DNA of 64,000 nucleotides, taken from the IMG/VR virus record IMGVR_UViG_3300037455_000543, positions 59,136-123,135 of that record, one strand, 5' to 3'. Both the position numbers and the translations under genes were made by a program. Each line of letters starts with the position of its first letter. The stretch's first letter is position 1. Shown here piece by piece: positions 35,011 through 56,917 of the stretch. The notes beneath the pieces were generated by a model. That model searched no databases, was not told where the DNA came from, and saw only the letters and a program-made list of their open reading frames with translations. This DNA is from a virus. Taxonomy: Duplodnaviria; Heunggongvirae; Uroviricota; Caudoviricetes.

Positions 35011-35766
35011 ATGTTAAAAAGAACAAGAAAAACATATATCGTATCTGATTTGCACTTCGACCATGCAAATATTGTCAGATATTGCAATAGGCCATATCAT
35101 GTAGAACCGCCTAACAGTAATCCTATCAATAAGCCTGCAGTCGAAGCGATGAACGAAGATATTTTGAAGCAATTCGACCGTCTTCCAGAAGATTGCGATA
35201 TCTGGAACCTTGGCGATGTATTCTTCGCTGGTTCTAGGTTTAAGGATTATCGTAAGCCTGAAAAGATTGCCGAATTGAAAGATAGGGTTGCTCGTATGAA
35301 GCAAGGTAATCGTAAGTTATTCCTTGTCTTGGGCAATCATGACGATGTTCATCTGCATAATAAAGACCGCATTGAATATTATTATGACCTTGGATTTGAC
35401 AAGGTTTATGATACGCCGGTTATTCTTGAAAATAAGTATATCTTATCTCATGAACCGTTGTATATTAAGCCTGGTTCAGATTTTATCAATCTCTATGGCC
35501 ATACGCATGATCTTGCAATCCAGGAAGATTATTTCTGCTATGACTACGAGAACTATGCTATGGAATGCAGAGTATTTGATAAGGCTGGTCAAGAACATCC
35601 ACCCATTCAGAAGCGTTATCCAGATCGCATTATTGATTTAAAGAATTATAAGAATGTATGCTTGGATCATAATAACGGCATTCTCGAATGGACAGGAGAT
35701 TATTTTAAACAGGCTACGCTTTGCTGGCCAAATAAGGAAGAAAAGAATGAAAACGAAAAGAACTAA
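35011..35766 (+). CDS. calcineurin-like metallophosphoesterase
   Basis: SDLHFDH, LGDV, GNHD, SHEP, GHTH. Confidence 0.9.
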   Translation: MLKRTRKTYIVSDLHFDHANIVRYCNRPYHVEPPNSNPINKPAVEAMNEDILKQFDRLPEDCDIWNLGDVFFAGSRFKDYRKPEKIAELKDRVARMKQGNRKLFLVLGNHDDVHLHNKDRIEYYYDLGFDKVYDTPVILENKYILSHEPLYIKPGSDFINLYGHTHDLAIQEDYFCYDYENYAMECRVFDKAGQEHPPIQKRYPDRIIDLKNYKNVCLDHNNGILEWTGDYFKQATLCWPNKEEKNENEKN

Positions 35767-36214
35767 CACATTTGAAACTAACTCATCTTCGGTACATACA
35801 TTGACTATTGCATCTGCTGAAGATTTTGAAAAGTTCGAAAACTGCGATATGCTTTTGAACTATGAAACTTTGGTTCCTGCAGAAGATGTCTATAAAGAGA
35901 TGATGGAAACTCTTGCTGAAGCCGAAGATAAAATGACAGAGGATTACCGTAAGACTTATAAGGATTCTCTTACATTTGAAAAGTTCAAGGAAGTACTTAA
36001 GGGCCTCAGTGATACCGATTTGTCTTGGCATAATCGCGACAAAGCATATAATAATATCAACGATGACTACAGTGCTGTTATCGGCGGAATGCGTGAAGAT
36101 GTAACTACGCTTGACTGCCTCGGTAATGAATATTATGAAACTTATGTCGAAAGATATAAAACAAAGTCCGGTGACGAAATCGTTGCATTTGGTTACTTCG
36201 GAAGAGACGGCTAA
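35747..36214 (+). CDS. FETNSSS-motif protein 1
   Basis: MKTKRTNTFETNSSSVH; start moved to ATG 35747. Confidence 0.8.
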   Translation: MKTKRTNTFETNSSSVHTLTIASAEDFEKFENCDMLLNYETLVPAEDVYKEMMETLAEAEDKMTEDYRKTYKDSLTFEKFKEVLKGLSDTDLSWHNRDKAYNNINDDYSAVIGGMREDVTTLDCLGNEYYETYVERYKTKSGDEIVAFGYFGRDG

Positions 36215-36217
36215 TTT

Positions 36218-36724
36218 ATGAAAACCATTAGATTTAATACGTTCGAAACTAATTCTAGTTCTTGCCACGTAGTGACTGTATTGTCTGACTATGAAATCGA
36301 AGAGATAAAGAATGGCGAATCTTTACTTGCGATCTATAAGAGTCAGAATGAAAAGACAATTACTAAAATGTTTGACAATTTTAGATTTAGATACGAAATT
36401 GAACGATTTCAATTTAGTTATGATTATTCGAAAGACGAACCCAAATATATCGATATTCCTCGTGAAACCATGAAGGAACTTTGCGATAAGATTTGGAAAT
36501 TACTTGTCGAAGATTCCAAAAATCCGGTTGAACAATTTACTGTTAAACTCGATGCTATCTTTGCCGAATACAAGTTGGATGAAGATTTTGTCGATTCTGT
36601 AAAAAGCTTTGTAAGTTATTTCGCAGGTAAGTCTGCGCTTGATCATATTTTTGAACGTTTGCAGAAGTATAAAATGCCTAATGGTGATGAAATGAATATC
36701 AGTTGCGTAGAAATGGAGTGCTAG
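36218..36724 (+). CDS. FETNSSS-motif protein 2
   Basis: MKTIRFNTFETNSSSCH. Confidence 0.85.
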   Translation: MKTIRFNTFETNSSSCHVVTVLSDYEIEEIKNGESLLAIYKSQNEKTITKMFDNFRFRYEIERFQFSYDYSKDEPKYIDIPRETMKELCDKIWKLLVEDSKNPVEQFTVKLDAIFAEYKLDEDFVDSVKSFVSYFAGKSALDHIFERLQKYKMPNGDEMNISCVEMEC

Positions 36725-36725
36725 T

Positions 36726-37184
36726 ATGAAAACGATTAGAAATAATACATTTGAAACTAATTCAAGTTCTTGTCATGTTCTTACTGTCGCTGATCAGGCT
36801 GAATATGATTTGGTCAAGAATAATCAGGCAGTAATTTATGTTCCTGTCTATCATTCTCAATCTGAAGATGTTTATGAGTCTGTAATTCTTACTAAGGAAG
36901 GTTTTCTTTCTGTTATAGAAAAACAGGTCGGTGAACAGTATGAAGCCTATTCTACATTCTTTGAAGAATCATGGAATATCATGTTTATGCCTGGCTGTTA
37001 TGATGAACAGCTCGAAGAACTTGCAGTAAAATATAAGGTTCCATGTGATATCAAGCAAAAAGTAGAAGATATTATTTGGCACAGCACTCATGAAGAAGGT
37101 CAGATTGAAATTCTTGATGATGCAATTAAGAAGGAAGTTAACGGTTCTACCGTATATGTAAGTTGTTGGTCTAAATACTGCTAA
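36726..37184 (+). CDS. FETNSSS-motif protein 3
   Basis: MKTIRNNTFETNSSSCH. Confidence 0.85.
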   Translation: MKTIRNNTFETNSSSCHVLTVADQAEYDLVKNNQAVIYVPVYHSQSEDVYESVILTKEGFLSVIEKQVGEQYEAYSTFFEESWNIMFMPGCYDEQLEELAVKYKVPCDIKQKVEDIIWHSTHEEGQIEILDDAIKKEVNGSTVYVSCWSKYC

Positions 37185-38005
37185 TGAGATATTTGTATAA
37201 TATGGAAATTGATAGAGAAATCACAGAACTTGGTCATCGATTGAAAAATATCGAAGAAAGCATCGATCATATCAGAGAATGTACCGAAGCAGAAATTGCT
37301 AAATGTGAGCAAGCTATTGATGACCGTATTGCTTATAATGCATATTATAGTCGTTTTGATCAACCCGCATTTTTAACGACAGACCGTGGATTTTATTGGG
37401 AATGGAAACCTGCTAAAAAAGAGTTTCGTGATTACAAACTTAATAAAATCTATAATTTCTTTATCAGTTATGATGCAAATGATGACGGTATACGTATAAA
37501 GTGGCTTCCATTAGTTGAACGTATCAGGCATATCTGTGTAGACATTGGTAATGTATATTTTAACCATCATGAATCTATCATCGGTGAACATTGCCGTAGT
37601 ATCTATATTGATAGGCCAACATTGATTAAGAACATATTTGTAAAACGCGAACAGGTTGTTAATCAAGGTGATGATGTCTATTCCGTTGAATATATCGATA
37701 TCGATTCTAAGCTAGAAGAAATCTTGAATGATTCAAAACTGGAATATTTGCCGTATGATAAATTTATAAAGCTGAATAAGTTTTATAACTGGTGTAAAGA
37801 AACTAATCGCCATGCTATTCTTGCGGCAAAAACAATATGTGATTATCCAAGAATGTTAAATTCTACTGTTCAATTTGAAGAATTGTATAAAGATGCAATT
37901 GATTGCTATAAGACATATAATCCGCAATGTCTTATTAATGAAAATACAAGGACATATAGAAATAGGCATGGACATCTAAGACCAGGAGTAACTGTAAGAA
38001 TGTAG
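37184..38005 (+). CDS. hypothetical protein
   Basis: 273-aa ORF, TAATG overlap. Confidence 0.75.
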   Translation: MRYLYNMEIDREITELGHRLKNIEESIDHIRECTEAEIAKCEQAIDDRIAYNAYYSRFDQPAFLTTDRGFYWEWKPAKKEFRDYKLNKIYNFFISYDANDDGIRIKWLPLVERIRHICVDIGNVYFNHHESIIGEHCRSIYIDRPTLIKNIFVKREQVVNQGDDVYSVEYIDIDSKLEEILNDSKLEYLPYDKFIKLNKFYNWCKETNRHAILAAKTICDYPRMLNSTVQFEELYKDAIDCYKTYNPQCLINENTRTYRNRHGHLRPGVTVRM

Positions 38006-38035
38006 GTTTACAAAAACCTGCATTTTTTCTATATT
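38001..38035 (+). promoter_or_regulatory. terminator/early-promoter module
   Basis: TGTAGGTTT-acaa-AAACCTGCA+T run; TTTACA(38007)-17-TATATT. Confidence 0.75.
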
Positions 38036-38042
38036 ATAAGAT

Positions 38043-39332
38043 ATGGTATTTGAAACTTTTGATAAAACTGTTGCATCTGGTATGGACCTCTGCCGAGTAA
38101 TCGTTCAGAAGGGTTATGAAGCCTATCTCGTTGGTGGTTGCGTTCGTGATATGATTATGCAAAGACTTGGTATGAGTGACAAGACTGATATTCATGATGT
38201 CGATATTGCTACTAACATGCCTATTGAACAGCTTCAACATAACTTCAAGACTGCAAGTAACAATGGTGAAGCTCATGGCACCATTCTTGTAGAACATGAT
38301 GGTATCTATTTCGAAGTTACTCAGTTCAGAACTGATGGCATCTATTCTGATGGTCGTCACCCTGATTCTGTAACTTTTACTAAGTCTTTCAAGGAAGATA
38401 CTGCTCGTCGTGACTTTACTATCAATGCTATGGGTCTTGACTGCAACGGTATTGTAATTGACCATCACAACGGTATTAAGTGCCTTCAGAATAAGGTTAT
38501 CAATACTGTTGGTGATCCGGTTGAACGTTTTAGTGAAGATGCACTCCGTATTCTCCGCGCATATCGCTTTGCTGCAAGGTATAAGTTCGATATTACTCCT
38601 GAGATTCGTGAAGCTATTCGTAAGACTAAGTATAAGCTCGCAGATATCGCAATGGAACGTGTTTCTGATGAACTTAAGAAGTGCATGTCTTATGGCTATA
38701 CTGAAATCGCCGCTATGGTCAGAATGATGAATACTGACGGTATTTTCCAGATTATCGATCCTAAGGGCTATATTAACCCCATCGAAGCTGAAAATATGCT
38801 TAGTACTCGTGCGGTTCGATTCGTAAATGGTATGGGTAGTAATTATACACCTCTTGGTTCGCTCATATGCATGCTCTGGGGCTCTGATTTAAAAAATGCG
38901 TATCAACACTATAAGTTAGAACACGACGTCTTCAGATGCGCCCAATGGTGCTTTAATCATCTTGATGCATATCATGTATTTGGTGAAGATATTGTTCTGG
39001 CGGTAGAAATGGTCGATAGCAGGTATTTTAACCAGCTTAGAGAGCTTGACGATGCCGTAACTGGTCATCTGATTGACCTCGCCACCTATAAAAAGGTCGG
39101 TCATATTGCAGATTTTGTAAAGACTTATACACAGGATCGTGTTCTCTCTTCTGCCATTGCGAAGTGCGGTTATCAAGGTAAGGCATTTGGTGAAATGCTT
39201 TATAAATTAAAACTTTGGCATTATACACGTCTTAGCGATAACTGTTATTATGAAGATGACGTTATCCTTGAACACCGTGCAATCGAATATATCAAGTCAT
39301 TGGAGGAAGTTAAGAATGCAAAAGAAGGTTAA
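38043..39332 (+). CDS. cca: class II tRNA nucleotidyltransferase (CCA-adding enzyme/poly(A) polymerase family)
   Basis: YLVGGCVRD, DVDIATN, HGT, RRDFTINAM, RFSEDALRILRAYRF. Confidence 0.88.
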   Translation: MVFETFDKTVASGMDLCRVIVQKGYEAYLVGGCVRDMIMQRLGMSDKTDIHDVDIATNMPIEQLQHNFKTASNNGEAHGTILVEHDGIYFEVTQFRTDGIYSDGRHPDSVTFTKSFKEDTARRDFTINAMGLDCNGIVIDHHNGIKCLQNKVINTVGDPVERFSEDALRILRAYRFAARYKFDITPEIREAIRKTKYKLADIAMERVSDELKKCMSYGYTEIAAMVRMMNTDGIFQIIDPKGYINPIEAENMLSTRAVRFVNGMGSNYTPLGSLICMLWGSDLKNAYQHYKLEHDVFRCAQWCFNHLDAYHVFGEDIVLAVEMVDSRYFNQLRELDDAVTGHLIDLATYKKVGHIADFVKTYTQDRVLSSAIAKCGYQGKAFGEMLYKLKLWHYTRLSDNCYYEDDVILEHRAIEYIKSLEEVKNAKEG

Positions 39333-39558
39333 GTTTACGATTGAATGCGAAATGGAAGAGAGATGGAAAGACTATTTCCTTTCATTTCTTAAAACCATGG
39401 AATTCTTTGGCCAGGCAGGCCATTCTGAACTTCTTGGTTTTTATTCTGATGGTGACGGCGACTTCAGGCCCAAGTTCGATTTCAAAGGAACCGAATATAC
39501 GCCTAAGGAGTCAATTCTCAGCAAGGAAATGTCAGTTAACTTCTTCGATGCTGGCTAA
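39316..39558 (+). CDS. conserved phage hypothetical protein
   Basis: FTIECEMEERW...GHSELLGFYSDGDGDFRPKF; GGAGG SD at ATG 39316. Confidence 0.75.
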   Translation: MQKKVKFTIECEMEERWKDYFLSFLKTMEFFGQAGHSELLGFYSDGDGDFRPKFDFKGTEYTPKESILSKEMSVNFFDAG

Positions 39559-39560
39559 AA

Positions 39561-39568
39561 TATAAATA
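39561..39568 (+). promoter_or_regulatory. late promoter TATAAATA
   Basis: Exact match upstream of 39660-40703 unit. Confidence 0.65.
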
Positions 39569-39659
39569 ATACATGAAATGTATTAGTTTATAAAATAAAA
39601 ATAACTGTATCGTCACAAGCGATATAGTTTCTTTTATTTTGTGGCAAAGGAAATTTAAT

Positions 39660-40163
39660 ATGGTAGTTCATAAGAAAGGTCATAAGAATAGCAAGGGCGA
39701 AAAAGCCGAATGGTGTATTGTTTCCCATAAAACCGGAAAAATTCTAAGTTCCCATAAGTCAAAAGCCGCAGCAAAAGCACATTTACAGCAAATGCATATA
39801 TTCAAAGAAGCACAAGATACAATCGATATGCTTGTAAACGATTTTAAAATCAATGCTTTGCTTGAACAGATGAATAACTGGGAAGTCAAAACCATGGGTT
39901 ATGAAAAATACTTGTCTATCCAGGTAAACCCAAATCTTGAACTTTATGTTTCAGTTAGCTGGGATGGAAGAGGAGAGGAATATTTTACCGTCGGAAACGA
40001 AAATGTCCCTGATGAAAGTTTTGCCTGCAGAACTGTCGCTGATGTCGCTGAAAAGCTTGAACAATACCTTGATAAACAGGGAAGTCTTATGGAAAGTATA
40101 ATGTCGCTTGATGAAGCATTTACTGTATTGAATGAAAACGGTTATATTACTGAAGCTAGGTAG
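39660..40163 (+). CDS. late protein with basic His/Lys N-domain and C-terminal LDEA motif
   Basis: KKGHKNSKGEKAEWCIVSHKTGKILSSHKSK; C-terminus SLDEAFTVLNENGYITEAR; AAAGGA SD at ATG 39660. Confidence 0.75.
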   Translation: MVVHKKGHKNSKGEKAEWCIVSHKTGKILSSHKSKAAAKAHLQQMHIFKEAQDTIDMLVNDFKINALLEQMNNWEVKTMGYEKYLSIQVNPNLELYVSVSWDGRGEEYFTVGNENVPDESFACRTVADVAEKLEQYLDKQGSLMESIMSLDEAFTVLNENGYITEAR

Positions 40164-40166
40164 TTT

Positions 40167-40703
40167 ATGACAAACAAGAAGTTAACAGAAAATTTTAGTT
40201 TAAATGAATTCATAAAGACTGACCCTACTGACTACCAGCTCCAGTTGCTTCAGTTATTGGCTGACAATTTACAGTCAGTAAGAAACTTCCTTCAAGAATT
40301 CGCATTGCCGAAAAAGACTGTATCTATCAGTATTAATTCAGGTGTTAGAACTCAGGCTGACTATGAACGCCTGATTAAAAATGGCTATAATCCTAGTAAG
40401 ACATCTGACCATTTTTGCGGATATCAGCTTCTGGCAAAACCTACTCTTGGTGCAGCAGATATCAGTGTAAAAAACTGTTCCCTTTCCTTGAAAGAAATCG
40501 CAGCAAAGATTATCGAATGGGATAAAAATGGGCTTGTTCATTTCGGTCAGGTAATCTACGAGAAAAATCCAAAAACCGGTAGCGAATGGATCCATCTCGG
40601 AAATGACCCGCATCAGATATTCAATTTCAACATCGTGGTTGAAAGAAATAAATACTTGATGTCGTTGGATAACGGTAAAACCTATAAAGCATTCAAACTA
40701 TAA
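40167..40703 (+). CDS. peptidase M15A (candidate endolysin)
   Basis: LTENFSLNEF, ISINSGVR, SKTSDH, GAADI, WIHLG zinc ligands. Confidence 0.85.
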   Translation: MTNKKLTENFSLNEFIKTDPTDYQLQLLQLLADNLQSVRNFLQEFALPKKTVSISINSGVRTQADYERLIKNGYNPSKTSDHFCGYQLLAKPTLGAADISVKNCSLSLKEIAAKIIEWDKNGLVHFGQVIYEKNPKTGSEWIHLGNDPHQIFNFNIVVERNKYLMSLDNGKTYKAFKL

Positions 40704-40741
40704 TTGTCACAGTCCTTTTTGGGCACGTTTCAATTGTGACA

Positions 40742-40768
40742 GCACTAGACTTCGGTCTAGTGTTTTTT
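40742..40768 (+). terminator. intrinsic terminator with cUUCGg tetraloop
   Basis: GCACTAGAC-TTCG-GTCTAGTGT-TTTTT. Confidence 0.9.
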
Positions 40769-40773
40769 ATAGG

Positions 40774-40802
40774 TTTACAAAAATAAAATCGTTTACTATC
40801 TT
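40774..40802 (+). promoter_or_regulatory. sigma70-like early promoter
   Basis: TTTACA-17-TATCTT. Confidence 0.7.
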
Positions 40803-40808
40803 TATAAC

Positions 40809-41957
40809 ATGTATATACCGAAATTAGAAGATTATTATAAAGCAGTTGAAGACGGATTATTGTCAAAGCACGAAACCACCGACCTTGTTGGTTTCAAGTA
40901 CAATATTCATACGACTTTTAACAAATTGTGGAATGACGTTACGATTAACGCACGTGGTATTACTTTTGATAAGCATACCGGTGAAATTGTTGCACGCCCT
41001 TTCCGTAAGTTCTTCAATCATTCGGAATTTATTACTATTGACCATGTAACAACGGAGCTTTATGACATTGTTCCTCAAGAATATCGTCCGAATTTGTCTG
41101 GCGCTTTCAGAGTTATGGATAAGCTTGATGGTTTCCTCGCTATTACGTTCTATAACAAATATCTCGGTGAATGGCAAATCAAGACTGGTGGCTCATTCAT
41201 AGCAAAACAGTCTGATTGGGCACAAGATTGGTTTAAAGAACATGTTAACGACACCAAGATGGATAAGGCTAATACTTATCTATTTGAAGGAATTTGGTCT
41301 GGTGACAGACATGTAGTCAAATATGATTACGAAGCACTTAAGCTGTTAGCAGTTATTCCTAATGCGACTGGTAACGAATTGCCGTTAAAGGATATTCGTC
41401 AGGCTGCGGAAGATATGGGTGTTCAGATGGCAGAAGTCAAGAACTATACTAACTTCCAGGATATGCTTAAGGAAGTTGCTGACTATCCGTCAACACTTGA
41501 AGGTGTTGTAGTTACGTTCGATAACGGTTATAAGTGCAAGGTAAAAGGAATTCAATACTGTGAAATGTTCATGGTGTTGAACAACTTGACAGAAAGAGAA
41601 ATCTTTATGCGTTACGATCCTGTCAAGGATATCGTATATGCAAATGTCAATCCGTGCAATGGTTATAAACCGTTGAATGACGAAGTTCTTGTAGTTCCTG
41701 AAGAATTACCGGAAATTTCTGAATATGTCAAGGTTCTTAAGACCAGACAACATGTGTTGGTCGAAACCGTGTTATCTATGGCAAAGGAAATCGACAAGAC
41801 TGGAGTTGACGGTAAGGAACTTTACGATACGGTATGCAAGCGTTGGGAAAATAAGAAAGAATTTATTGGACCGACGATGAGTGCAATTAAATCATTACGT
41901 AAAGGCGATGAAGTATTTGCAGCTACTAAGATTGCATTAAAAAAATTACTTCGTTAA
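40809..41957 (+). CDS. RNA ligase, T4 Rnl1/RnlA-like
   Basis: ARGITFD, ARPFRKFFN, MDKLDGFL, TYLFEGI, EGVVV, KCKVKG. Confidence 0.88.
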   Translation: MYIPKLEDYYKAVEDGLLSKHETTDLVGFKYNIHTTFNKLWNDVTINARGITFDKHTGEIVARPFRKFFNHSEFITIDHVTTELYDIVPQEYRPNLSGAFRVMDKLDGFLAITFYNKYLGEWQIKTGGSFIAKQSDWAQDWFKEHVNDTKMDKANTYLFEGIWSGDRHVVKYDYEALKLLAVIPNATGNELPLKDIRQAAEDMGVQMAEVKNYTNFQDMLKEVADYPSTLEGVVVTFDNGYKCKVKGIQYCEMFMVLNNLTEREIFMRYDPVKDIVYANVNPCNGYKPLNDEVLVVPEELPEISEYVKVLKTRQHVLVETVLSMAKEIDKTGVDGKELYDTVCKRWENKKEFIGPTMSAIKSLRKGDEVFAATKIALKKLLR

Positions 41958-41968
41958 AAGGGGAACTT

Positions 41969-42154
41969 ATGGAACCTGAAACAATTTATGTAATTATGCG
42001 GTCGTTCTACATTGATAGTGAAGAACACCGTGAAGTTGTTACCGCCCGCAGGGATGAAAAGGAAGCCGAAACCTTGTGTAATCAATGGAATCAGGAAGCC
42101 AAAGAGTCCAATGAAGACGAAGACTATTGGTATAGTGAAACCGAACTTTCGTAA
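41969..42154 (+). CDS. hypothetical protein
   Basis: 61-aa acidic ORF. Confidence 0.7.
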   Translation: MEPETIYVIMRSFYIDSEEHREVVTARRDEKEAETLCNQWNQEAKESNEDEDYWYSETELS

Positions 42155-42167
42155 ACAATACTTTAAC

Positions 42168-42497
42168 ATGAAGTTTTTTGAAAAATTAAAAGAACATTTT
42201 TTCAAAGCATTTGAGGATGATATGCCTATTATTGAATTTGTAAGTTATACTGGTGAATGGCCATGTTTGTGTTTCGGAACATTGACCATCAAGGTTGATG
42301 GAAAGGAATATGAAATTGACCATTTAATATCTGGCGGACATGTCTGGTTTGACGATGATTGGGGTGATCATGTCTCATCAGGTCCTTGGTCTATTGATGA
42401 AGATGATATACCGGAAGAAATTCGCCAATATAAGGATGAAATTGAAAAGGTAGTAAATGATAATGTTCCGTGGGGTTGCTGCGGAGGTTGTGTTTAA
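42168..42497 (+). CDS. conserved phage protein (VPWGCCGGCV)
   Basis: YTGEWPCLCFGTL...SGG...GPWS...NVPWGCCGGCV; start moved to ATG 42168. Confidence 0.75.
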   Translation: MKFFEKLKEHFFKAFEDDMPIIEFVSYTGEWPCLCFGTLTIKVDGKEYEIDHLISGGHVWFDDDWGDHVSSGPWSIDEDDIPEEIRQYKDEIEKVVNDNVPWGCCGGCV

Positions 42498-42506
42498 GGA
42501 GGAACT

Positions 42507-42797
42507 ATGTTAAAGAACATCATGGGTATCGTAGCATTCTGTTTGGGCTTTGCTTTTGCGCAACTGTCCGAAGAGATGAAAATTAATCTCAACATGCCTA
42601 TTGACATTAAGGACACAGCTGAGATAAACTATGTTCCTGAGTCAATTACCAAGGCACTGGATAACATGAGAGTCCAGCCTAGACAGAAACATATCATTCT
42701 AAGGCATAATTATTTTGATATTATTGAGCGTTATCTGGAAACAGATACTCTTGACCATTATTGGTATTGGAACTATAAACTGATTATCAATTTTTAA
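42507..42797 (+). CDS. secreted hypothetical protein
   Basis: Signal-peptide-like MLKNIMGIVAFCLGFAFA; AAGGAGG SD. Confidence 0.7.
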   Translation: MLKNIMGIVAFCLGFAFAQLSEEMKINLNMPIDIKDTAEINYVPESITKALDNMRVQPRQKHIILRHNYFDIIERYLETDTLDHYWYWNYKLIINF

Positions 42798-43013
42798 ATG
42801 AGATATTTTATGTGTCCAGTGATAGAAAAATTATTGAGTAATTTATCGCCTAAAAATCGCGAAAAATGGCTTAAACTGTTAAATGAGCCGCAGCCGATTT
42901 ATCATGAACTTTATTCAGTCAATGGTAAACGAGTTTATGGAACTTATTGGGTAGAATATCCGAAAAAGAACAGCCTCGGTAATGTAAATGAATATTTTTA
43001 TAAGGATAAATAA
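42798..43013 (+). CDS. hypothetical protein
   Basis: 71-aa ORF. Confidence 0.65.
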   Translation: MRYFMCPVIEKLLSNLSPKNREKWLKLLNEPQPIYHELYSVNGKRVYGTYWVEYPKKNSLGNVNEYFYKDK

Positions 43014-43321
43014 TGCAAGTATCTGTATCGATTTATGGCACAGCTAAATCTGTATCGCCGGATATTATGGCAAATTTCACATTGAGTGAACATATGCAAA
43101 ATGGCAAATGGTCCTATGGAATCAGAGATTTCAGTTACGATATGCGTAATGAACTTATTGACGAAATAGATGAATCTCGCATGGTCGACAGAATTAAAGA
43201 AAAAATATGTACTTTGATTAATTCACCAGTTGGACCGATGTGGGTAAAGTCACCAGTATTGCGTATATATTACAATCCTGATGACCTCGGAAATGTTACA
43301 GTCAAAAGTTCTTTTGGTTAA
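43013..43321 (+). CDS. hypothetical protein
   Basis: TAATG overlap. Confidence 0.7.
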   Translation: MQVSVSIYGTAKSVSPDIMANFTLSEHMQNGKWSYGIRDFSYDMRNELIDEIDESRMVDRIKEKICTLINSPVGPMWVKSPVLRIYYNPDDLGNVTVKSSFG

Positions 43322-48697: not shown

Positions 48698-48716
48698 ATT
48701 CTGAATTTTCTTTAGC

Positions 48717-48752
48717 AAGACCGTAGAAACCTACGGTCTTTTATTATAAATA
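48717..48752 (+). promoter_or_regulatory. terminator followed by late promoter
   Basis: AAGACCGTAG-aaac-CTACGGTCTT-TT, then TATAAATA 48745-48752. Confidence 0.75.
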
Positions 48753-48779
48753 TAATAAAACTAACGTTAGAGGAAATTT

Positions 48780-50213
48780 ATGAATAAAATGAAACTTTTT
48801 GAAATGGCTAAGGCTGCTCAAGAACGTATGCTTGACAGACTTCCAGTTAATAAGAAATATATTTTCTTAATTGGCCGTTTTCTTGAATTGCATGGCGATC
48901 ATAATACAATGACTCGCCTCAAACAGTATCTTGAATCTCGTCTTTCTCCTGAAGAATTCAATATGGATAATATTTGCGGTGTATTTGGCGTAGATCCTGC
49001 TGCAAAACATACTGATGCTGGAACAAGAAACAATGAAAATTCTTTCGCAAGTGTTTTTCATGCACGTTTTGAAACACTCTATAATAACATGAAGAATTCC
49101 TTAGCTCGTTCAAAAGACGATATCGATAAGAACTATGTCGATAAGGTTCTCGATTTCTATTCTGCCGTTTATAATCATGAAAATCCGCAAGAAGCCTATG
49201 ATAGACTCAATATGGGTCCGGTAATTGACTGGATTAAAGATAACAAAACTGAAGCAGAAGAACGTTTTGGTCGTCGTTGGGATAAGATTCAGCGTGTTCT
49301 TGCACAATGGCTCGATGACAACTATGAAGGTTCTACCGCTCAAGCTGTAGCTAATTTCTGGGCATGGTGGCGTCAAACTAAAGATGAAAACCCGGATGCA
49401 TTAATGCCTATCGCATTAGCACAAAGATTGGCAAGAGTATTCTGTGAAGAAAATTCTCGTGAAGTTCTTGGTAATTTCCATAACTTCGTATTAAAGAAAG
49501 TATTGGTTACATTGACCGCTGATGACAACGGTGTTCCTGGTGCACTTAAGGCTAAAGTTGGTCAGGCTGTTCGTGACGGTGAAGAATTAGGCCGTATGAC
49601 TGATTACTGCCGTAACCTCGTCAATACCTGGTTCGGAACTGAAGAACCTACAGACGAACAACTTGAAGCAATGCGTAATCGTGGTAACGACGAAGGAAAT
49701 AATGCCAATGTTGTCAATGAAGAAAACTACGAAGATACAATAGGTGATATTCTTGACCCTGCTGATACTGCTAAGCTCTCTTATGCAATGGGTGCTATCC
49801 ATCCAGATGATATACCTGTTACACTTGGAGAACTTGCTGAACAATTAAAAGAGTATATAGATTATGATAAAGTTGGTAAAGTTGATCGTGCGACTGTAAA
49901 AGCTGCATTTATGCATTTCCGCGAGAAAGTAACTTCTAAGGATTTTAGAATCGGTAATGAAATTATTGTTAATGAAAGACTTATAAATTCTATCCAGGAA
50001 TTCTATAATAACTATAAAAATATTTTCAAAATCGGTCTTACTCAAAATGGTTTATTCAAAATCTTCGACGGCCTCTTGACCCATTATTACGAACAGCGTA
50101 CTAAGGAAATTGATGATGAATGGGGCAATAAACAATATGATGATGTTCCAGATGATTATGAACTTGAAGAAGCATTAAGAGTTCTTCATCAAAATGGCTT
50201 CATGATTGACTAA
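48780..50213 (+). CDS. late protein with C-terminal LEEA motif (putative capsid-internal protein)
   Basis: MNKMKLFE...; C-terminus ELEEALRVLHQNGFMID. Confidence 0.8.
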   Translation: MNKMKLFEMAKAAQERMLDRLPVNKKYIFLIGRFLELHGDHNTMTRLKQYLESRLSPEEFNMDNICGVFGVDPAAKHTDAGTRNNENSFASVFHARFETLYNNMKNSLARSKDDIDKNYVDKVLDFYSAVYNHENPQEAYDRLNMGPVIDWIKDNKTEAEERFGRRWDKIQRVLAQWLDDNYEGSTAQAVANFWAWWRQTKDENPDALMPIALAQRLARVFCEENSREVLGNFHNFVLKKVLVTLTADDNGVPGALKAKVGQAVRDGEELGRMTDYCRNLVNTWFGTEEPTDEQLEAMRNRGNDEGNNANVVNEENYEDTIGDILDPADTAKLSYAMGAIHPDDIPVTLGELAEQLKEYIDYDKVGKVDRATVKAAFMHFREKVTSKDFRIGNEIIVNERLINSIQEFYNNYKNIFKIGLTQNGLFKIFDGLLTHYYEQRTKEIDDEWGNKQYDDVPDDYELEEALRVLHQNGFMID

Positions 50214-50221
50214 ATAAAATT

Positions 50222-50290
50222 AAAGAGGATTTCAAAATCCTCTTTTTTAATAGTAATAAAAAGGCGATTTTTGAATCGCCTTATTTTTAT
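50222..50290. terminator. two hairpin terminators between convergent late genes
   Basis: AAAGAGGAT/ATCCTCTTT and AAGGCGATT/AATCGCCTT. Confidence 0.8.
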
Positions 50291-52023
50291 TAGATTTCTT
50301 CCCAGATTTCTATGAAGCTTCCGCCTTCATTAGGTCTGCGTTCATTGAAATCGCCTGGTTTATAATCGAAGACAATCGGATCTTCTGTATCATTCAGCTT
50401 TTCAAGTGCAGCTTCCTTAGTAGGTGCAGCAACAACAACGTTATCTGTGATTGCTGGATTTACATTACCGTTTTCGTCAACTGGGTGATAGTATACACGC
50501 CATTCCTTAGGTCTTGCCATACGGTGAACAGGTCCATTAATTCTTCTTGGTTCTCTGTTTCTCGGTCTTTCACCAGCCGGTTCTTCAGCCGGAGCTTCTT
50601 CAGCAGGTGCTTCTTCTCTTGCAGGAGCTTCTTCAGCAGGTTCTTCAGCCGGAGCTTCCTCACCAGCAGCAGGAATGTCAGCAAACAATTCTTGATATTC
50701 TGCTGGAAGCGGACCAGGTTTTTCATTATCGATTAAACCATGTCCCTGTCTAACGGCAATTTCTTTTTCTTCAGGTTCATTTGGTCTAATTTCAACGAAT
50801 GTAAAGACATTATCAAACTTTTCATCAATTTGATCTTTTACCCATTGAGAAAGACCATTTGCATTATTACAAATATATTGAACATAAATTTTTGCGGTAT
50901 CACCATCAAAATCAGCAGTCAAAGCAATCTTGTTACCTTCAGGGTCATAGTCATCAACCGCTGCTTTAAGTGATTCATATGCTTCTCTAATATTTGCAGT
51001 TTCTTCACCGCCTTCAGTATCAATTTCAACAGCAACCGTTCTTGTAGTTACTCGAACATTTACTTCTGCTGGAGCTTCAGCTGCCGGTCTTTCTTGTCTT
51101 GCTGGTGCTGCAGGTGCTGCAGGTTCTTCATGTGCAGGTTGTGCTTGCTGTGCAGGTTGACCGCCAAGTCTGTGACCACGTGGGTTCGGGTTATCGCCGC
51201 CTCTACCAGTCGGTTGCGGAGGAACAGCGCCATTAATCTTACCGTCTGCTGCAACTGTAATAGCATCCTGATGGTGAGTATCTGTAAGTATCTGGTTAAG
51301 AGAATTAATAAACGATCTTAACTTAGCTTTACCGCGTTCCGGTGCATCAGGAATGAAAGAAGCGAAACCATAAATGAACTTCTTAACCTTATCTGGGTCA
51401 CGTTCCAAAACGTGGTTTGATTTAGCAGATGCATAACAATTCTTAAATGCATTACATCTTGCAAAGGCTGCAGGGTCCATGCCGCGGAATTCATTTGCTT
51501 CGTTAAGCATAAAACCATGCTGACCAAGAACTTCAACTGCTTCTCTGATTTCCTCATCACTTGGATAATATTCATTATTCATATCATCATAAAGATCAGT
51601 TTCTTCATCAGAGTAATCATCAGGAATTCTGCCGTCGTCTTCAGGTTCTTCAAAACCATTAAGCTTTCCTAAATTTTCATCTTCCGGATAATCATCATAG
51701 TTTTCTTCGTCTTCTTGTTCTTCGTCGCCGATATAATCGTTTTCATTATCCAATCTTTGTGATTCTTCATAGATAGCGTCAACGAGCTTATCAACTGCCT
51801 TAGTTGGTTCTATGCCATCTTCATAATATGAATTAATGATATCGGCATACCATTCGTCTTGCATCAATTCATCAATAGACTGATAATTTTCATCGTCTTT
51901 ATATGTATCAGCCCATAAGTCATTTAACTTGGCTACGTAATCTTCAAACGAACCAGTTGCCTGTTCTTTCAAGACATACAAACCATGTTGCTTAATTATT
52001 GATTTAGCTTCATTAATTGTCAT
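50290..52023 (-). CDS. acidic low-complexity late protein with two LNEA-type motifs
   Basis: MTINEAKSIIKQHGLYVLKE; internal EIREAVEVLGQHGFMLNE; EEAPAEEP repeats. Confidence 0.85.
   Translation of the reverse strand: MTINEAKSIIKQHGLYVLKEQATGSFEDYVAKLNDLWADTYKDDENYQSIDELMQDEWYADIINSYYEDGIEPTKAVDKLVDAIYEESQRLDNENDYIGDEEQEDEENYDDYPEDENLGKLNGFEEPEDDGRIPDDYSDEETDLYDDMNNEYYPSDEEIREAVEVLGQHGFMLNEANEFRGMDPAAFARCNAFKNCYASAKSNHVLERDPDKVKKFIYGFASFIPDAPERGKAKLRSFINSLNQILTDTHHQDAITVAADGKINGAVPPQPTGRGGDNPNPRGHRLGGQPAQQAQPAHEEPAAPAAPARQERPAAEAPAEVNVRVTTRTVAVEIDTEGGEETANIREAYESLKAAVDDYDPEGNKIALTADFDGDTAKIYVQYICNNANGLSQWVKDQIDEKFDNVFTFVEIRPNEPEEKEIAVRQGHGLIDNEKPGPLPAEYQELFADIPAAGEEAPAEEPAEEAPAREEAPAEEAPAEEPAGERPRNREPRRINGPVHRMARPKEWRVYYHPVDENGNVNPAITDNVVVAAPTKEAALEKLNDTEDPIVFDYKPGDFNERRPNEGGSFIEIWEEI
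50575..50670 (-). repeat. tandem imperfect coding repeats (EEAPA/EEPA)
   Basis: Repeated ttcttcagc/ttcttcagccggagc units encoding EEAPAEEPAEEAPAREEAPAEEAPAEEPA. Confidence 0.8.
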
Positions 52024-52047
52024 AAATCCTCTAAATTACTTTTATAT

Positions 52048-52055
52048 TATTTATA
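52048..52055 (-). promoter_or_regulatory. late promoter TATAAATA
   Basis: Exact match upstream of 52023. Confidence 0.7.
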
Positions 52056-52069
52056 ACCAAAAATAAGAA

Positions 52070-52096
52070 AAATACCCTGTCAAACAAGGTATTTTA
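52070..52096. terminator. terminator hairpin
   Basis: AAAATACC...GGTATTTT. Confidence 0.6.
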
Positions 52097-52114
52097 GACT
52101 TAATTCTGAATTTC

Positions 52115-52729
52115 TTACTTTAATCTATTGGCCAAATCTCTGATATTTCCACCGTTCTTCAAGAAATCAGTTACACTCATACCGAGACCTGCCCTTCTAG
52201 CTATTTCTGTAGTGCGTTTCGGTGTTCCTCTTCTGTTTTTCAACGGATCTCTTTGACCAATAGCATTTCTATTAATACCTGCTGCCATATCACGGGCACG
52301 GGCATTAGATACTTCATATTTATCGTAATTTTCTTTCAACCAAGTAATAAGCTGGTCAAGGCCTCTTGTGAATGTATCAGTTGTTGTATAGAACGTATCA
52401 GCTTGTAAAACAACAGGTTTCTTGGAACCGTCTTTCAATGTCTTAATAAAAACTCTCGCATTACTGTTATCGCATACGGACAATGTTCCATCATTATTAA
52501 TCTTGATTTCAAACTGGTATGCGCCACGTCCGCCCTTACGTGTAAGCTGTATTTTATTTGCAGAACGACCATTTGTCGGAGACGGAATATAGATATCACC
52601 CATGTCACGTCTAATTCTATTACAAATCCAGTTTGTCATTGTCTGATTATATGCTTCATCAGCCTTTTCATTAATAATAAAATCTATAAGGCTATGCTTT
52701 TTTACGTTCTTATATACAATATTTGACAT
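52115..52729 (-). CDS. basic late protein
   Basis: IINE near N-terminus; Arg-rich C-terminus; TATAAATA at 52749-52756. Confidence 0.75.
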   Translation of the reverse strand: MSNIVYKNVKKHSLIDFIINEKADEAYNQTMTNWICNRIRRDMGDIYIPSPTNGRSANKIQLTRKGGRGAYQFEIKINNDGTLSVCDNSNARVFIKTLKDGSKKPVVLQADTFYTTTDTFTRGLDQLITWLKENYDKYEVSNARARDMAAGINRNAIGQRDPLKNRRGTPKRTTEIARRAGLGMSVTDFLKNGGNIRDLANRLK

Positions 52730-52748
52730 GAACCCTCTCTTTTTATTA

Positions 52749-52807
52749 TATTTATAAGTTCAAAATTAAAAATAATAGTTTACAATAATTCCTATTTTTA
52801 TTATATT
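52749..52807. promoter_or_regulatory. late (-) and early (+) divergent promoters
   Basis: TATAAATA on - 52749-52756; TTTACA(52779)-17-TATATT. Confidence 0.7.
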
Positions 52808-52813
52808 TGTTAT

Positions 52814-53599
52814 ATGACACAATTTGTTTTAATTACTGGCTATATGGGTTGTGGAAAGTCGACTGTTTCCAATATCCTACGTGACAAGTCATTTTACGTC
52901 CTCGATATGGATTCGACGATTAAATTCTTGTATAATAAAGACGTTGGAACAAAAGATCTTCTATGTCAAGTCTTTGGTCATAATGCACTTAAACCCTATG
53001 ACAAAGAACTGAGGACTTGCCTACCAAATATGGAATATCTGCGACAAGAAATGTTTAAACCAGAAAATGCAGAAAAACGCAAATTGTTAATGCACCGTAT
53101 TTTAAATGAACGACTACATCCAGGTATCTTTTTTGAAGGATATGATGATATTCATCGTAAACCGATTGTATTCGTTGAAGCTGCATTAACTGAATCTGTC
53201 CCGGAATTTATAGACATATTTGGAGTAAAGCATGTTATCAATGTTCAATGTGCTGACCATCTTAGACGACAACGTTTACATGAACGAGGAATGACTGATG
53301 AAGATATTGATACTCGTTCCAGACTTCAAAGTTGGCCAGTTTTGCCTAATAGTGTAATTACACACTCAATTACAAATGACCAATCAATAGACGTATTGAG
53401 ACAACAGATAGATACTCTACTTGGTGATAAAAATTTTATCTACGACACTACTAGGCTGGAATTCTTTAAAGAAGTACTTCCAAGAATTCCTACATATGCA
53501 GTCAATAATGCAATTTGTAGTGCGTTTAAATCGGCAAAGGGTTGTAAGAATTGTCCATTCCCATGTGAAGAATGGTTAAATAAAAAGGATAAGACATGA
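52814..53599 (+). CDS. coaE: dephospho-CoA kinase-like P-loop kinase with C-terminal Cys cluster
   Basis: ITGYMGCGKSTV, DMD, VEAA, RRQRLHERG...SRLQ; tail CxxxxxxxCxxCPFPC. Confidence 0.65.
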   Translation: MTQFVLITGYMGCGKSTVSNILRDKSFYVLDMDSTIKFLYNKDVGTKDLLCQVFGHNALKPYDKELRTCLPNMEYLRQEMFKPENAEKRKLLMHRILNERLHPGIFFEGYDDIHRKPIVFVEAALTESVPEFIDIFGVKHVINVQCADHLRRQRLHERGMTDEDIDTRSRLQSWPVLPNSVITHSITNDQSIDVLRQQIDTLLGDKNFIYDTTRLEFFKEVLPRIPTYAVNNAICSAFKSAKGCKNCPFPCEEWLNKKDKT

Positions 53600-53756
53600 A
53601 GTTCACGCTAAACATTCCATTTGAAAAACTTAAAATAACAGATGAAGAATTAGCGAAGAGACAGGAACTCATTAAAAAGCATACCGATGAAAATGGTAAG
53701 GTAGATTTATATCTTGTATTTAAAGATTTTTATGAATGGTTAAATAAAAAGGATAA
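53570..53756 (+). repeat. 23-bp perfect direct repeat pair
   Basis: GAATGGTTAAATAAAAAGGATAA at 53570-53592 and 53734-53756. Confidence 0.9.
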
Positions 53757-53775
53757 AAATGACGAATCAATTTGA
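53596..53775 (+). CDS. small hypothetical protein (59 aa) between direct repeats
   Basis: MKFTLNIPFEKLKITDEELAKRQELIKKHTDENGKVDLYLVFKDFYEWLNKKDKNDESI; ATGA overlap. Confidence 0.65.
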   Translation: MKFTLNIPFEKLKITDEELAKRQELIKKHTDENGKVDLYLVFKDFYEWLNKKDKNDESI

Positions 53776-55096
53776 ATTCATTAAAAATTATATGCAGAGC
53801 TTGTCAGTTTGTAAGACTGAACGAGAATGGGTGCAAGAAGCAGAAACAATCGCTGTCCAGCATGGATTCTCAAAGTTCAATGCTAATACCAAATATGAAC
53901 CGGGCGATAAGGTTTATTTTGTAAATCGCAAGAAAAACTTCGCTGCATTCGTATATGGTAAATATAATATTTCTGCAAACTTGCTCGGTGCTCATATCGA
54001 CTCTCCGAGAATCGACGTGAAGCAACAGCCTTTATATGAATCTGATGGCGTTGCATATTTCGATACTCAATATTATGGTGGTATCAAGAAGTATCAGTGG
54101 ACTACTATTCCGCTCGCAATTCATGGTGTAGTATATAAGGCAAATGGTGATGAAATTAGCGTAAATATTGGCGAAAAGCCGAATGACCCTGTTTTCTGCA
54201 TTACTGACCTTCTTCCTCATCTTGGTCGAACAGCAATGAGCAAGGCTACTGCCGAAGAATTTATCAAGGGCGAAAAACTCGATATTATTGTCGGAACTAC
54301 GCCGATAACGACTAATAACAATGATACTCTCAAGCTTGATGAAAAGGAACCTGTAAAGAAATTCGTTCTTAACTATCTTAAAGAAAACTGGTTAATCGAA
54401 GACGAAGAAGATTTCTGTTCTGCCGAACTTGAAATTGTTCCTGCTGGCCCTGCAAGATTTAGCGGTCTTGACAAGTCTCTTGTTGCTGGTTACGGTCAGG
54501 ATGATAGAGTATGCGCATATACCTCTTTAATGGCTCTTATGGACCTCCAGGACGTCCCGGAACATACGGCAGGTGTAATACTAGTAGACAAGGAAGAAAT
54601 TGGTTCCTGCTGCGCTACAGGCGCGAAATCTCGCTGGTTTGAAGATGTTCTTAGAATGGTTTTCGATTCTCCGAATGAAGGAATGTTTGCAACAAGTCTC
54701 TATAATACCAAAATGCTTTCTTCCGACGTAACTGCTGCTTTTGACCCGCTTTACGGTGATGCCTATGATAAGAAGTCATCTGCAAAGTTTGGAAAGGGAA
54801 TTATGTTCTCCAAGTATAACGGCGGTCGAGGCAAGTCCGGTGGCGCTGATGCAAATCCGGAATTTATTGCCTATGTTCGCGGTTTGATGAAGGAAAATAA
54901 CTGCAAGTATCAGTTTGATTCTATGGGCAAGGTTGACCAAGGCGGTGGCGGAACTATTGCATCTATGGTTTCTGATTTGAATATCAATGTGCTTGATGCT
55001 GGTGTTCCTGTTCTCAATATGCACTCTCCGATGGAACTCGCTCATGTCGATGACATCTATGCTGCATATCTTGCATATATGGCATTCATTAAGTAA
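53759..55096 (+). CDS. M18 family aminopeptidase
   Basis: GAHIDSPR, YYGGIKKYQW, GQDDRVC, DKEEIGS, SSDV, GGGTI, MHSP. Confidence 0.92.
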   Translation: MTNQFEFIKNYMQSLSVCKTEREWVQEAETIAVQHGFSKFNANTKYEPGDKVYFVNRKKNFAAFVYGKYNISANLLGAHIDSPRIDVKQQPLYESDGVAYFDTQYYGGIKKYQWTTIPLAIHGVVYKANGDEISVNIGEKPNDPVFCITDLLPHLGRTAMSKATAEEFIKGEKLDIIVGTTPITTNNNDTLKLDEKEPVKKFVLNYLKENWLIEDEEDFCSAELEIVPAGPARFSGLDKSLVAGYGQDDRVCAYTSLMALMDLQDVPEHTAGVILVDKEEIGSCCATGAKSRWFEDVLRMVFDSPNEGMFATSLYNTKMLSSDVTAAFDPLYGDAYDKKSSAKFGKGIMFSKYNGGRGKSGGADANPEFIAYVRGLMKENNCKYQFDSMGKVDQGGGGTIASMVSDLNINVLDAGVPVLNMHSPMELAHVDDIYAAYLAYMAFIK

Positions 55097-55117
55097 AATA
55101 TTTTTAACATTTAATAT

Positions 55118-55159
55118 AAACTGAAACATATTTACAAGTGTTTCAGTTTTTTCTATATT
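55118..55159 (+). promoter_or_regulatory. terminator/early-promoter module
   Basis: AAACTGAAACA-tatttacaag-TGTTTCAGTTT; TTTACA(55131) in loop-17-TATATT. Confidence 0.75.
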
Positions 55160-55165
55160 TAGACT

Positions 55166-56158
55166 ATGAATTTAGAAGAATTTAAAAAAGAACAAGAAAA
55201 ACTAATTTGTAAACCGGTTCTATCTGTCTATAAGAACGGTAATCACTATGTTGCAATTTTTGCTGATGGAACGAAGATTAAGGAAACAGTCGATCCGGAA
55301 GCTGACCATTTTACACATGAATTCGCAGAAAACAGTGACATTAAGATTACTGACTACTGTGATGGCGGTTGTGTTTATTGTCATGAAAACTCCACTATCA
55401 AGGGAATTCATGGTGACTTGAAGAAAATCGAACCTATGCTTGATACTCTCCATGAAGGAACTGAAATGGCAGTCGGCGGCGGTAATGCTCTTGCTCATCC
55501 TGACCTTATCTGGTTCCTTGAAAAGTTGAAGTCAAAGAGTGTTATTGCGAATATCACGATTAACCAAAGACATCTCCAGCCTTATAAGGATTTAATCTGT
55601 AAGCTCGTTGCCGAAAAGTTGGTTAACGGCATTGGTGTTTCACTGACTGATTCTTCAAATGTTGATGACTTCAAGTTTATTGACACTCTTGGTGAAAATG
55701 TCGTTATCCATACGATTGCAGGTATTCTTACAGAAAAAGATATTGAATGCCTCAAGCATAGGAAAGTTCTTATTCTCGGTTACAAGGACCTTAGACGTGG
55801 ACATACGTTGCTTGAAAAGGAATCTGAAAGTATCAAGAAGAATATTGAATGGCTCAAGGGATTCCTGCCGATTATGAGACATATCTGCAAGGTTATTTCG
55901 TTCGACTGTCTCGGTATCGAACAGATTGACCCGAAGAAGATTTTCAATATGACGGATGAAATGTATAATTCCTTATTCCAAGGTTCAGATACCGATGTAA
56001 CGGATAGCGAAGGAAATATTACATGTTCTACATTCTATATCGACGTTCCGAACATGACTGTTGCAAGAATGAGCACTGCAGCACTCGACCAAAGATTCAA
56101 GTTCGACGGAACGGAAAATGTTCGTGACCTGTTCAAGATTTCAACCAAAGGATGGTAA
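55166..56158 (+). CDS. radical SAM protein
   Basis: KITDYCDGGCVYCHE (CxxxCxxC), GGGN, ANITIN; no SPASM Cys cluster visible. Confidence 0.9.
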   Translation: MNLEEFKKEQEKLICKPVLSVYKNGNHYVAIFADGTKIKETVDPEADHFTHEFAENSDIKITDYCDGGCVYCHENSTIKGIHGDLKKIEPMLDTLHEGTEMAVGGGNALAHPDLIWFLEKLKSKSVIANITINQRHLQPYKDLICKLVAEKLVNGIGVSLTDSSNVDDFKFIDTLGENVVIHTIAGILTEKDIECLKHRKVLILGYKDLRRGHTLLEKESESIKKNIEWLKGFLPIMRHICKVISFDCLGIEQIDPKKIFNMTDEMYNSLFQGSDTDVTDSEGNITCSTFYIDVPNMTVARMSTAALDQRFKFDGTENVRDLFKISTKGW

Positions 56159-56161
56159 TTT

Positions 56162-56917
56162 ATGAAAACTATAAGACTTTGCACATTTGAAACAAACTCG
56201 TCTTCAATGCATGCGATTATTATTCCGGAACGCTCTTTTAATGCACATAAGCATTTGAAAGATATTGTATTCCAATACAATATGGATTTTAGTGAAAGAG
56301 CATTGTATATCCGTAATAAGCCGGAAGAAAAAGCGTCTTATGTATTTCAGCTTATCGTCGGGCAAATTAATTCGTATTTTGTTCCGGTTACAAAAGATGA
56401 CGTTGAAATCCCTGGTGCTGTAACTCATAATGAAAGAGTAATCAAGATGTTTACCGACTGGATGGAACAGTTCAAGGCAGAAGTTCTTGAATGGGAAAAG
56501 ATCAATGTCTCCTTCGGCGGATATGTTATTTCTCGTGAATATACCAATTACAAGGGTGAAGTCGTAAGACAATATCATATTCAAGAACCTGAAGGAACTT
56601 ATGCATCCACTGGTTGTTATGGCCACAAGGGTGTAAACGGTGTTTTGCTTTCACGCCTGTTTGACCGTTTTGACAAGGCAGTAGAAAATATCGATTCTCC
56701 TGACTGGGATAAGCCAGAAGAAATCGAAAAGCGTAACAAAAATTGGGACGCATCCATGTTCTATATTATCAATTTTGTTTTTGACCCGAATGCTGTTATT
56801 ATTCAGTATACTGATGAATACAGTGATGAAGGTCTTGTTGAAATGAAACAGAAAATTAGAGAATATATGGAAATGAATGATTACCGTTGTAATGTTATTT
56901 GGCCTATTGGAGGCTAG
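56162..56917 (+). CDS. FETNSSS-motif protein 4
   Basis: MKTIRLCTFETNSSSMH; 3 nt after radical SAM stop. Confidence 0.85.
   Translation: MKTIRLCTFETNSSSMHAIIIPERSFNAHKHLKDIVFQYNMDFSERALYIRNKPEEKASYVFQLIVGQINSYFVPVTKDDVEIPGAVTHNERVIKMFTDWMEQFKAEVLEWEKINVSFGGYVISREYTNYKGEVVRQYHIQEPEGTYASTGCYGHKGVNGVLLSRLFDRFDKAVENIDSPDWDKPEEIEKRNKNWDASMFYIINFVFDPNAVIIQYTDEYSDEGLVEMKQKIREYMEMNDYRCNVIWPIGG

Follow-up and report, generated by a model that had tools for sequence, protein, structure and literature searches.

Radical S-adenosylmethionine (SAM) enzymes that act on dedicated peptides or proteins are known from several systems. In SuiB/SuiA and SkfB/SkfA the substrate genes lie beside that of the enzyme, and one enzyme can serve several substrates that carry a conserved N-terminal piece; the anaerobic sulfatase maturases (anSMEs; anSMEcpe and AtsB) modify a short motif close to the N-terminus of a protein, converting a Ser or Cys within it to the catalytic residue; and the activases PflA and NrdG are small single-cluster enzymes that also act on a protein. 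Here we describe a radical-SAM enzyme of a 424-kb rumen phage together with a set of otherwise diverse small proteins, its putative clients, which begin with a common motif containing FETNSSSxH (the tag). The enzyme gene and four client genes lie in a stretch of 64,000 nucleotides (the window; positions 59,136 to 123,135 of IMG/VR record IMGVR_UViG_3300037455_000543), and the record as a whole is viral, 424,163 bp long and has direct terminal repeats. An earlier interpretation, made from the letters of the window alone (the sequence-only reading), had taken the enzyme and the motif proteins for a dedicated pair in which the enzyme recognises or modifies TNSSSxH. The pairing itself is supported by our results, the two components being linked in both directions across unrelated phage lineages; what is said below about binding and chemistry is prediction throughout. 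The genes concerned are the following (coordinates are those of the window unless stated otherwise, and 'body' denotes the part of a client beyond the tag).

55166-56158, plus strand: radical-SAM enzyme, 330 residues (PF04055; phrog_16999), with a single [4Fe-4S] motif, C65-x3-C69-x2-C72
35747-36214, plus strand: tagged copy 1, 155 residues, of the second-largest body cluster ('FGxYGRDG-end', 65 members)
36218-36724, plus strand: tagged copy 2, 168 residues, of a small body cluster
36726-37184, plus strand: tagged copy 3, 152 residues, of a small body cluster
56162-56917, plus strand: tagged copy 4, 251 residues, related to the main body family but divergent from it
G000:C1:343682-344227 (= L005:3683-4228), minus strand, outside the window: tagged copy 5, 181 residues, of the main DH...NDN body family

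A tagged open reading frame (ORF) was found close to 75 of 82 related radical-SAM loci, comprising 29 of 33 viral loci and 46 of 49 from metagenome-assembled genomes (MAGs) or other genomes; these counts, like the other linkage counts given here, describe limited samples, among the matches listed. The viral loci came from a profile search of IMG/VR. At 28 of the 33 the enzyme gene had at least one FETNSSSxH ORF on its own strand no more than 10 kb away, in most cases next to it, and at one more a PETNSSSSH variant was present on the opposite strand. Among the remaining loci one had a tag about 37 kb away, two were cut by contig ends and one, from a record that is 8% complete, was tagless. In the species-genome collection tags were adjacent to the enzyme at 46 of the 49 loci, the other three being truncated matches; most of these loci are on gut or rumen MAG contigs, many of them labelled Firmicutes. 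The module was also seen on two Methanomassiliicoccaceae MAG contigs (L199 and L201) and in the complete chromosome of a spirochaete, Breznakiella homolactica (L203, 266389-283248); the former may be archaeal viruses and the latter a prophage.

The reverse test started from the tag, using a degenerate DNA pattern that picked out at least 118 viral stretches. The enzyme was encoded within 86 of 118 of these, among the matches listed. Of the stretches in which it was not found, 26 were followed into their whole records, and 17 of these records encode the enzyme elsewhere, including all eight that are at least 90% complete; the nine that stayed negative are 3-76% complete. Motif proteins were thus not commonly found in complete genomes that lack the enzyme; the opposite finding was among those named by the sequence-only reading as counting against its proposal. 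When ORFs up to 5 kb either side of the enzyme were clustered at 30 loci, only the enzyme and the tagged families were conserved and no third conserved gene emerged. Homologues of the enzyme with 37-40% identity occur in Lak megaphages and in the Microcystis phage Ma-LMM01. In Lak-B7 the enzyme gene is followed directly by four tagged ORFs, and in Ma-LMM01 the tagged product is gp130, encoded two genes upstream of the enzyme (gp128, itself a member of phrog_16999), so that the same enzyme family and the same tag on neighbouring ORFs recur there. For gp128 and the Lak homologues we found annotation labels only, and no description of a function or of the pairing in the literature searched. Nor did we find any paper that contains the motif or describes the pairing of enzyme and tag; the sequence-only reading likewise knew of no function assigned to the pair. 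The module is widespread, viral and apparently undescribed, and the library that was searched contains over 1,000 members of the enzyme family.

Within the window a six-frame regular-expression scan detected exactly four tagged ORFs, copies 1-4, all opening with MKT(K/I)RxxTFETNSSSxH, and a scan of the whole genome added copy 5. In each of the five copies R5, an aromatic residue at position 9, E10, T11, N12, S13, S14 and H17 keep their place relative to the first residue of the ORF. The four-member family of the sequence-only reading is thus correct for the window as placed, but has five members in this genome and 7,438 clusters in total (see below). Alignment of the first 84 nt of the window copies bore out its observation that the Ser codons differ (TCA-TCT-TCG, TCT-AGT-TCT, TCA-AGT-TCT and TCG-TCT-TCA), with switches between TCN and AGY; because the three Ser codons differ between copies, the tag must be conserved at the level of the peptide. 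The further claim that the copies diverge after about 25 residues holds for copies 1-3, which have only residues 1-25 in common with the main family (hhalign detected nothing beyond residue 25), but not for copy 4, whose family matched the main family over residues 1-66 (hhalign probability 98.4%), the common stretch extending to about 66-72 residues. Copy 4 also keeps GCYGH and IIQxTDE, which suggests degenerate forms of the GYIDHQS and IVIDNDNH of the main family. Its start codon lies 3 nt past the stop codon of the enzyme gene, as had been noted.

In a close relative the orthologue of copy 2 lies directly after the enzyme gene and before the orthologue of copy 4 (L007:10995-12236), and another relative has three tandem tagged ORFs of sizes like those of copies 1-3, which are possibly their orthologues (L082:1145-2571). 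Because of these arrangements the clients seem to be mobile within these genomes.

To describe the tag, 252 unique ORFs were collected with TNS[ST][ST].H as the only anchor. Arg at -6 and Glu at -1 relative to the anchor were present in all 252, and an aromatic residue at -2 in 251 (Phe in 249). The third Ser of the tag was S in 246 and T in 6, and the residue before the His was free, giving the consensus R-x3-[FWY]-E-T-N-S-S-[ST]-x-H, in which R5, E10, T11, N12, S13, S14 and H17 are invariant and no invariant position is Gly. In 241 of 250 ORFs the Phe stood at position 9 or 10. Among 1.84 billion representative proteins, a profile covering 34 columns of the tag matched 7,438 library clusters (50% identity) at E <= 0.001, of which 778 also passed E <= 1e-10. 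Apart from about six, the top 150 hits had the tag in residues 1-34. Two proteins with apparently two tags (P0241 and P0242) appear to be pairs of neighbouring ORFs called as one.

A start with MKT and an invariant Glu10, on small and diversified proteins, recalls the internal proteins of phage T4, which carry a 10-residue capsid-targeting sequence, MKT...E, that ends in (L/I)-x-E, is cut after the Glu and is not known outside T4-like phages. The N-terminus could accordingly be a signal for virion packaging or protease processing, with its position beside the radical-SAM gene a matter of co-regulation, but we consider the chance of this very slight. The invariant residues run on for seven positions beyond Glu10; the residue three before the Glu is V or T rather than L/I (V 177, T 46 and I 11 of 252); the module is found in phages unrelated to T4, including the Lak megaphages and Ma-LMM01, as well as on Firmicutes-labelled MAG contigs and the two archaeal MAG contigs; and the linkage to a single enzyme family is nearly complete.

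The bodies of 246 clients fell into 33 BLAST clusters, the largest of which, with 117 members, includes copy 5. They are acidic, with a median isoelectric point of 4.39 and 97% of them below 5.5, and a search for long fused clients found none above 317 residues, which is weak evidence. No credible Pfam domain was present in 94 diverse clients, searches of Pfam, PHROGs and NCBIfam gave nothing credible for the clients, and the client profile had no match by sequence in the Protein Data Bank (PDB). In the AlphaFold2 model of copy 5 the body was predicted with a mean local confidence (pLDDT) of 89, and residues 1-13 were disordered (below 50). Foldseek found no match to this fold in the PDB at E <= 0.001, the best score in a wide VIA search was Z 3.5, and matches in AFDB and BFVD were to uncharacterised proteins only, probably of the same family. 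A feature search of ESM-Atlas with copy 4 gave no usable match; a shape search with copy 5 gave a template modelling score (TM) of 0.58 over 132 residues to a 261-residue viral cluster, 97% of whose members carry the Tad2-like domain PF11195. A relation to Tad2 was not supported, as PF11195 was not detected in the phage, and Tad2-like ORFs scored above the cut-off in only 3 of 50 tag-bearing records, in no case fused or adjacent to a tag. Among GenBank phages, megablast with both regions and tblastn with copy 4 returned nothing and tblastn with copy 5 returned Lak phages only, with weak E-values; these searches are too insensitive to be used for counting.

The main body family has additional invariant residues, G43, W44, Y58, D139, H140, S142, N178, D179 and N180, the polar and aromatic ones of which resemble those of an enzyme, and at least 45 of 75 enzyme loci have a client of this family. 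This would fit an explanation in which the clients are a small family of enzymes with the tag as a catalytic or ligand-binding motif of their own (FETNSSSxH together with GW, DHQS and NDN), and the radical-SAM enzyme acts in the same pathway without contacting them. We regard this as quite unlikely, since the tag is found without the other motifs in copies 1-3 and in about 30 further body clusters, and is locked to the start of the ORF. In addition, the tag is disordered in the model of the monomer and is directed into the barrel of the enzyme when the two proteins are predicted together (see below).

Turning to the enzyme, the ORF scored 32.9 bits against PF04055 (gathering cut-off 29.5) and matched phrog_16999 ('Fe-S oxidoreductase') with E 9.8e-41, residues 52-316 aligning to positions 8-279 of the 288 in the profile. 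Comparison of 18 homologues with 36-69% identity gave 36 invariant positions, among which the only Cys are C65, C69 and C72; C248 and C287 are present in close relatives only. Because the invariant Cys number only three, the enzyme should lack an auxiliary cluster, which agrees with the description of it in the sequence-only reading as a CxxxCxxC protein with no SPASM cluster. Its AlphaFold2 model (pLDDT 91) has an N-terminal beta-hairpin domain, a partial TIM barrel and a C-terminal domain in which cluster cysteines are missing. Radical-SAM enzymes made up the top Foldseek matches to this fold and, with few exceptions, the top VIA matches (Z 10-18). The nearest solved folds were SuiB (Z 18.4 over 280 residues, the N-terminal domain included) and SkfB (Z 18.1 over 269 residues), followed by EpeE (16.0), PqqE (15.8), BlsE and viperin (about 16), then ChlB and anSME (14.5), with PFL-AE at 11.3.

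The likeness to SuiB and SkfB thus covers both the radical-SAM core and a structurally aligned N-terminal domain, as well as the gene arrangement and the sharing of one enzyme by several substrates with a conserved N-terminal piece. The differences are the following: identity is 11-13%, SPASM/twitch cysteines are missing, the clients are proteins of 90-300 residues, the one that was modelled having a folded body, rather than short peptides, the conserved piece is the extreme N-terminus itself and probably includes the target, and the module is virus-borne. The resemblance to anSMEcpe and AtsB lies in the kind of substrate, but the tag has no (C/S)-x-(P/A)-x-R motif, the enzyme lacks their two auxiliary clusters and the client bodies have no recognisable fold. 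PflA and NrdG match it in being small and single-cluster, and a few database entries of the enzyme family are named 'organic radical activating enzyme'. Nevertheless, the tag contains no invariant Gly, the structural match to PFL-AE reaches only Z 11.3, and the match to NrdG2 (TIGR02495) is weak (E 0.0024; 17.2 bits against a cut-off of 131). The genome also appears to have a separate gene of this kind, a second CxxxCxxC ORF on the minus strand outside the window (G000:C1, about 151748) with an NrdG-like motif (VSGCRNHCKGCFN); judged from that motif only, the phage probably encodes an anaerobic ribonucleotide reductase activase as well.

A complex of the enzyme with a [4Fe-4S] cluster, SAM and copy 5 was predicted in three runs using alignments for both proteins. 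The interface score (ipSAE) was 0.87 (0.85-0.88 between runs), compared with 0.01 for the best of three controls; at least 68% of the contacts were common to the runs and the pLDDT of the partner was at least 71. In the predicted complex the enzyme contacts only residues 1-23 of copy 5, which run into the barrel. Residues 1-7 are placed alongside two segments of the enzyme, 34-41 and 268-272, and F9 and E10 touch barrel strands (enzyme residues 100, 102, 127, 129, 155 and 180). The pairing of tag residues 1-7 with the strand at 34-41, together with the SuiB and SkfB alignments that reach the N-terminal domain, would make that domain a peptide-recognition domain, both lines being predictions.

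Pairing of this kind could also be expected of a tag that serves for docking only, as the leaders of RiPPs (peptides made by the ribosome and then modified post-translationally) are likewise conserved and bind by strand addition. The enzyme would then modify the variable body; alternatively, the clients could be adaptors or gates and the true substrate a small molecule or nucleic acid. That the enzyme is far better conserved than the bodies, with 65-70% identity among relatives whose clients differ, is in keeping with either version. Both seem to us unlikely, because the bodies have no common residue outside the tag (94 diverse clients are 9% identical per column, and all of the invariant columns belong to the tag), docking would call for neither the length nor the strictness of the invariant E-T-N-S-S plus H, and F9 and E10 are modelled against strands of the barrel interior.

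We therefore think it reasonably probable that the radical-SAM enzyme and its tagged clients form a two-component viral protein-maturation module, with the clients bound at their free N-termini and modified at one residue of the invariant stretch. The enzyme would capture the free N-terminus of each client, with client residues 1-7 (containing M-K-T-I-R) forming an added strand on its N-terminal beta-hairpin, at residues 34-41. Residues 8-17 (x-F-E-T-N-S-S-S-x-H) would reach into the partial TIM barrel through its open end, next to SAM and the [4Fe-4S] cluster, where the 5'-deoxyadenosyl radical would take a hydrogen from one tag residue, leading to a covalent change. The ancestral client was probably a small acidic 'DH...NDN' protein such as copy 5, in which the tag, once modified, would make a conserved polar site complete; copy 4 would be a degenerate form of it, and copies 1-3 later clients that retained only the tag. 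Of the proposal that the enzyme recognises or modifies TNSSSxH, recognition is in line with the dedicated linkage and with a predicted complex in which only the tag is docked into the barrel; a covalent change at one tag residue is hypothetical, as are the suggestions that it creates a cofactor or an active site and that the clients are effectors.

Several points weigh against this proposal. The enzyme lacks the auxiliary clusters used by SuiB, SkfB and anSME and also has no conserved Cys to donate hydrogen as in EpeE. Because these are absent, the chemistries of its nearest structural relatives are not simply transferable, which argues against direct extrapolation from the mechanisms of anSME and EpeE or of sactipeptide and streptide formation; a redox-neutral or reductive radical chemistry on a Ser, Thr, Asn or aromatic residue is possible. 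Four of the five clients in this genome are encoded 19-228 kb away from the enzyme gene, and no enzyme was detected in two sizeable tag-bearing records (74% and 76% complete). The predicted complex, being a prediction, supports binding of the tag by the enzyme without showing it. In calibration, 58 of 80 solved complexes and 2 of 110 mismatched pairs came up to the mark that it attained, counts that apply only roughly because our own alignments and added ligands were used. Finally, 18 of the 36 invariant enzyme residues fall within the 67-residue interface (counted by hand), but this enrichment is weak evidence because barrel-lining residues are conserved in every radical-SAM enzyme.

Enzyme and clients belong to two transcription units in the window, for which the additional features are as follows.

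34952-34980, plus strand: promoter-like TTTACA-N17-TATATT, putative promoter, preceding the phosphoesterase and copies 1-3
35011-35766, plus strand: metallophosphoesterase (PF00149, E 2.5e-6; phrog_547, E 7e-28), first gene of this first unit
55131-55159, plus strand: promoter-like TTTACA-N17-TATATT, preceding the radical-SAM gene and copy 4 and overlapping a terminator-like hairpin at 55118-55149

TTTACA-N17-TATATT occurs at 11 exact sites in the window, all on the plus strand, against 0.13 expected (starts at 8692, 14910, 26612, 29922, 34952, 38007, 44620, 47258, 52779, 55131 and 61875), and appears to be a promoter class of the phage. No late-type TATAAATA was found on the plus strand just before these genes. 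As TTTACA-N17-TATATT precedes each unit and the late-type motif neither, the two units are probably in one temporal class. The sequence-only reading had placed the enzyme and copy 4 under one early promoter: the motif class is real, and early timing would be our interpretation too, although only at the level of inference. At two sites, 38007 and 55131, a terminator-like hairpin lies over the -35 hexamer, the one at 38007 being that which closes the unit of the phosphoesterase and copies 1-3. The sites at 26612 and 61875 have the same TTTACAAAAACC start as 38007, and the hairpin scan did not cover these two. Outside the window, copy 5 is the second gene after a 174-residue ORF that itself sits behind TTGACG-N17-TATATT, and is followed by a 103-residue ORF that we take to be SpoVG-like from its appearance.

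The PF00149 match confirmed that the three tandem copies lie behind a metallophosphoesterase, as had been read from the sequence. This gene, the 273-residue ORF at 37184-38005 and the phrog_4243 ORF were considered as parts of the module and rejected, since in the comparison of 30 loci they proved to be local neighbours only. The first unit is flanked by a 429-residue ORF (38043-39332), presumably a CCA-adding tRNA nucleotidyltransferase, and the radical-SAM unit by a 445-residue ORF (53759-55096), presumably an aminopeptidase, both assumed from the look of their translations only.

A bolder suggestion, which we offer as a real possibility rather than as the expected outcome, is that aromatic-E-T-N-S-S-S-x-H is turned into a new protein-derived group (an aldehyde, a cross-link, or a dehydro or pyruvoyl residue) through which thousands of small acidic viral proteins do their work. 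This would be a virus-specific maturation chemistry, performed by a single-cluster radical-SAM enzyme and without a described counterpart. If the proposed maturation is correct, the module, whose carriers include huge phages of rumen and gut, cyanophages and archaeal MAG contigs, would be among the larger uncharacterised enzyme-substrate systems of phages. It would represent a new radical-SAM chemistry carried out on whole proteins without auxiliary clusters, and would provide a handle on many small acidic phage proteins.

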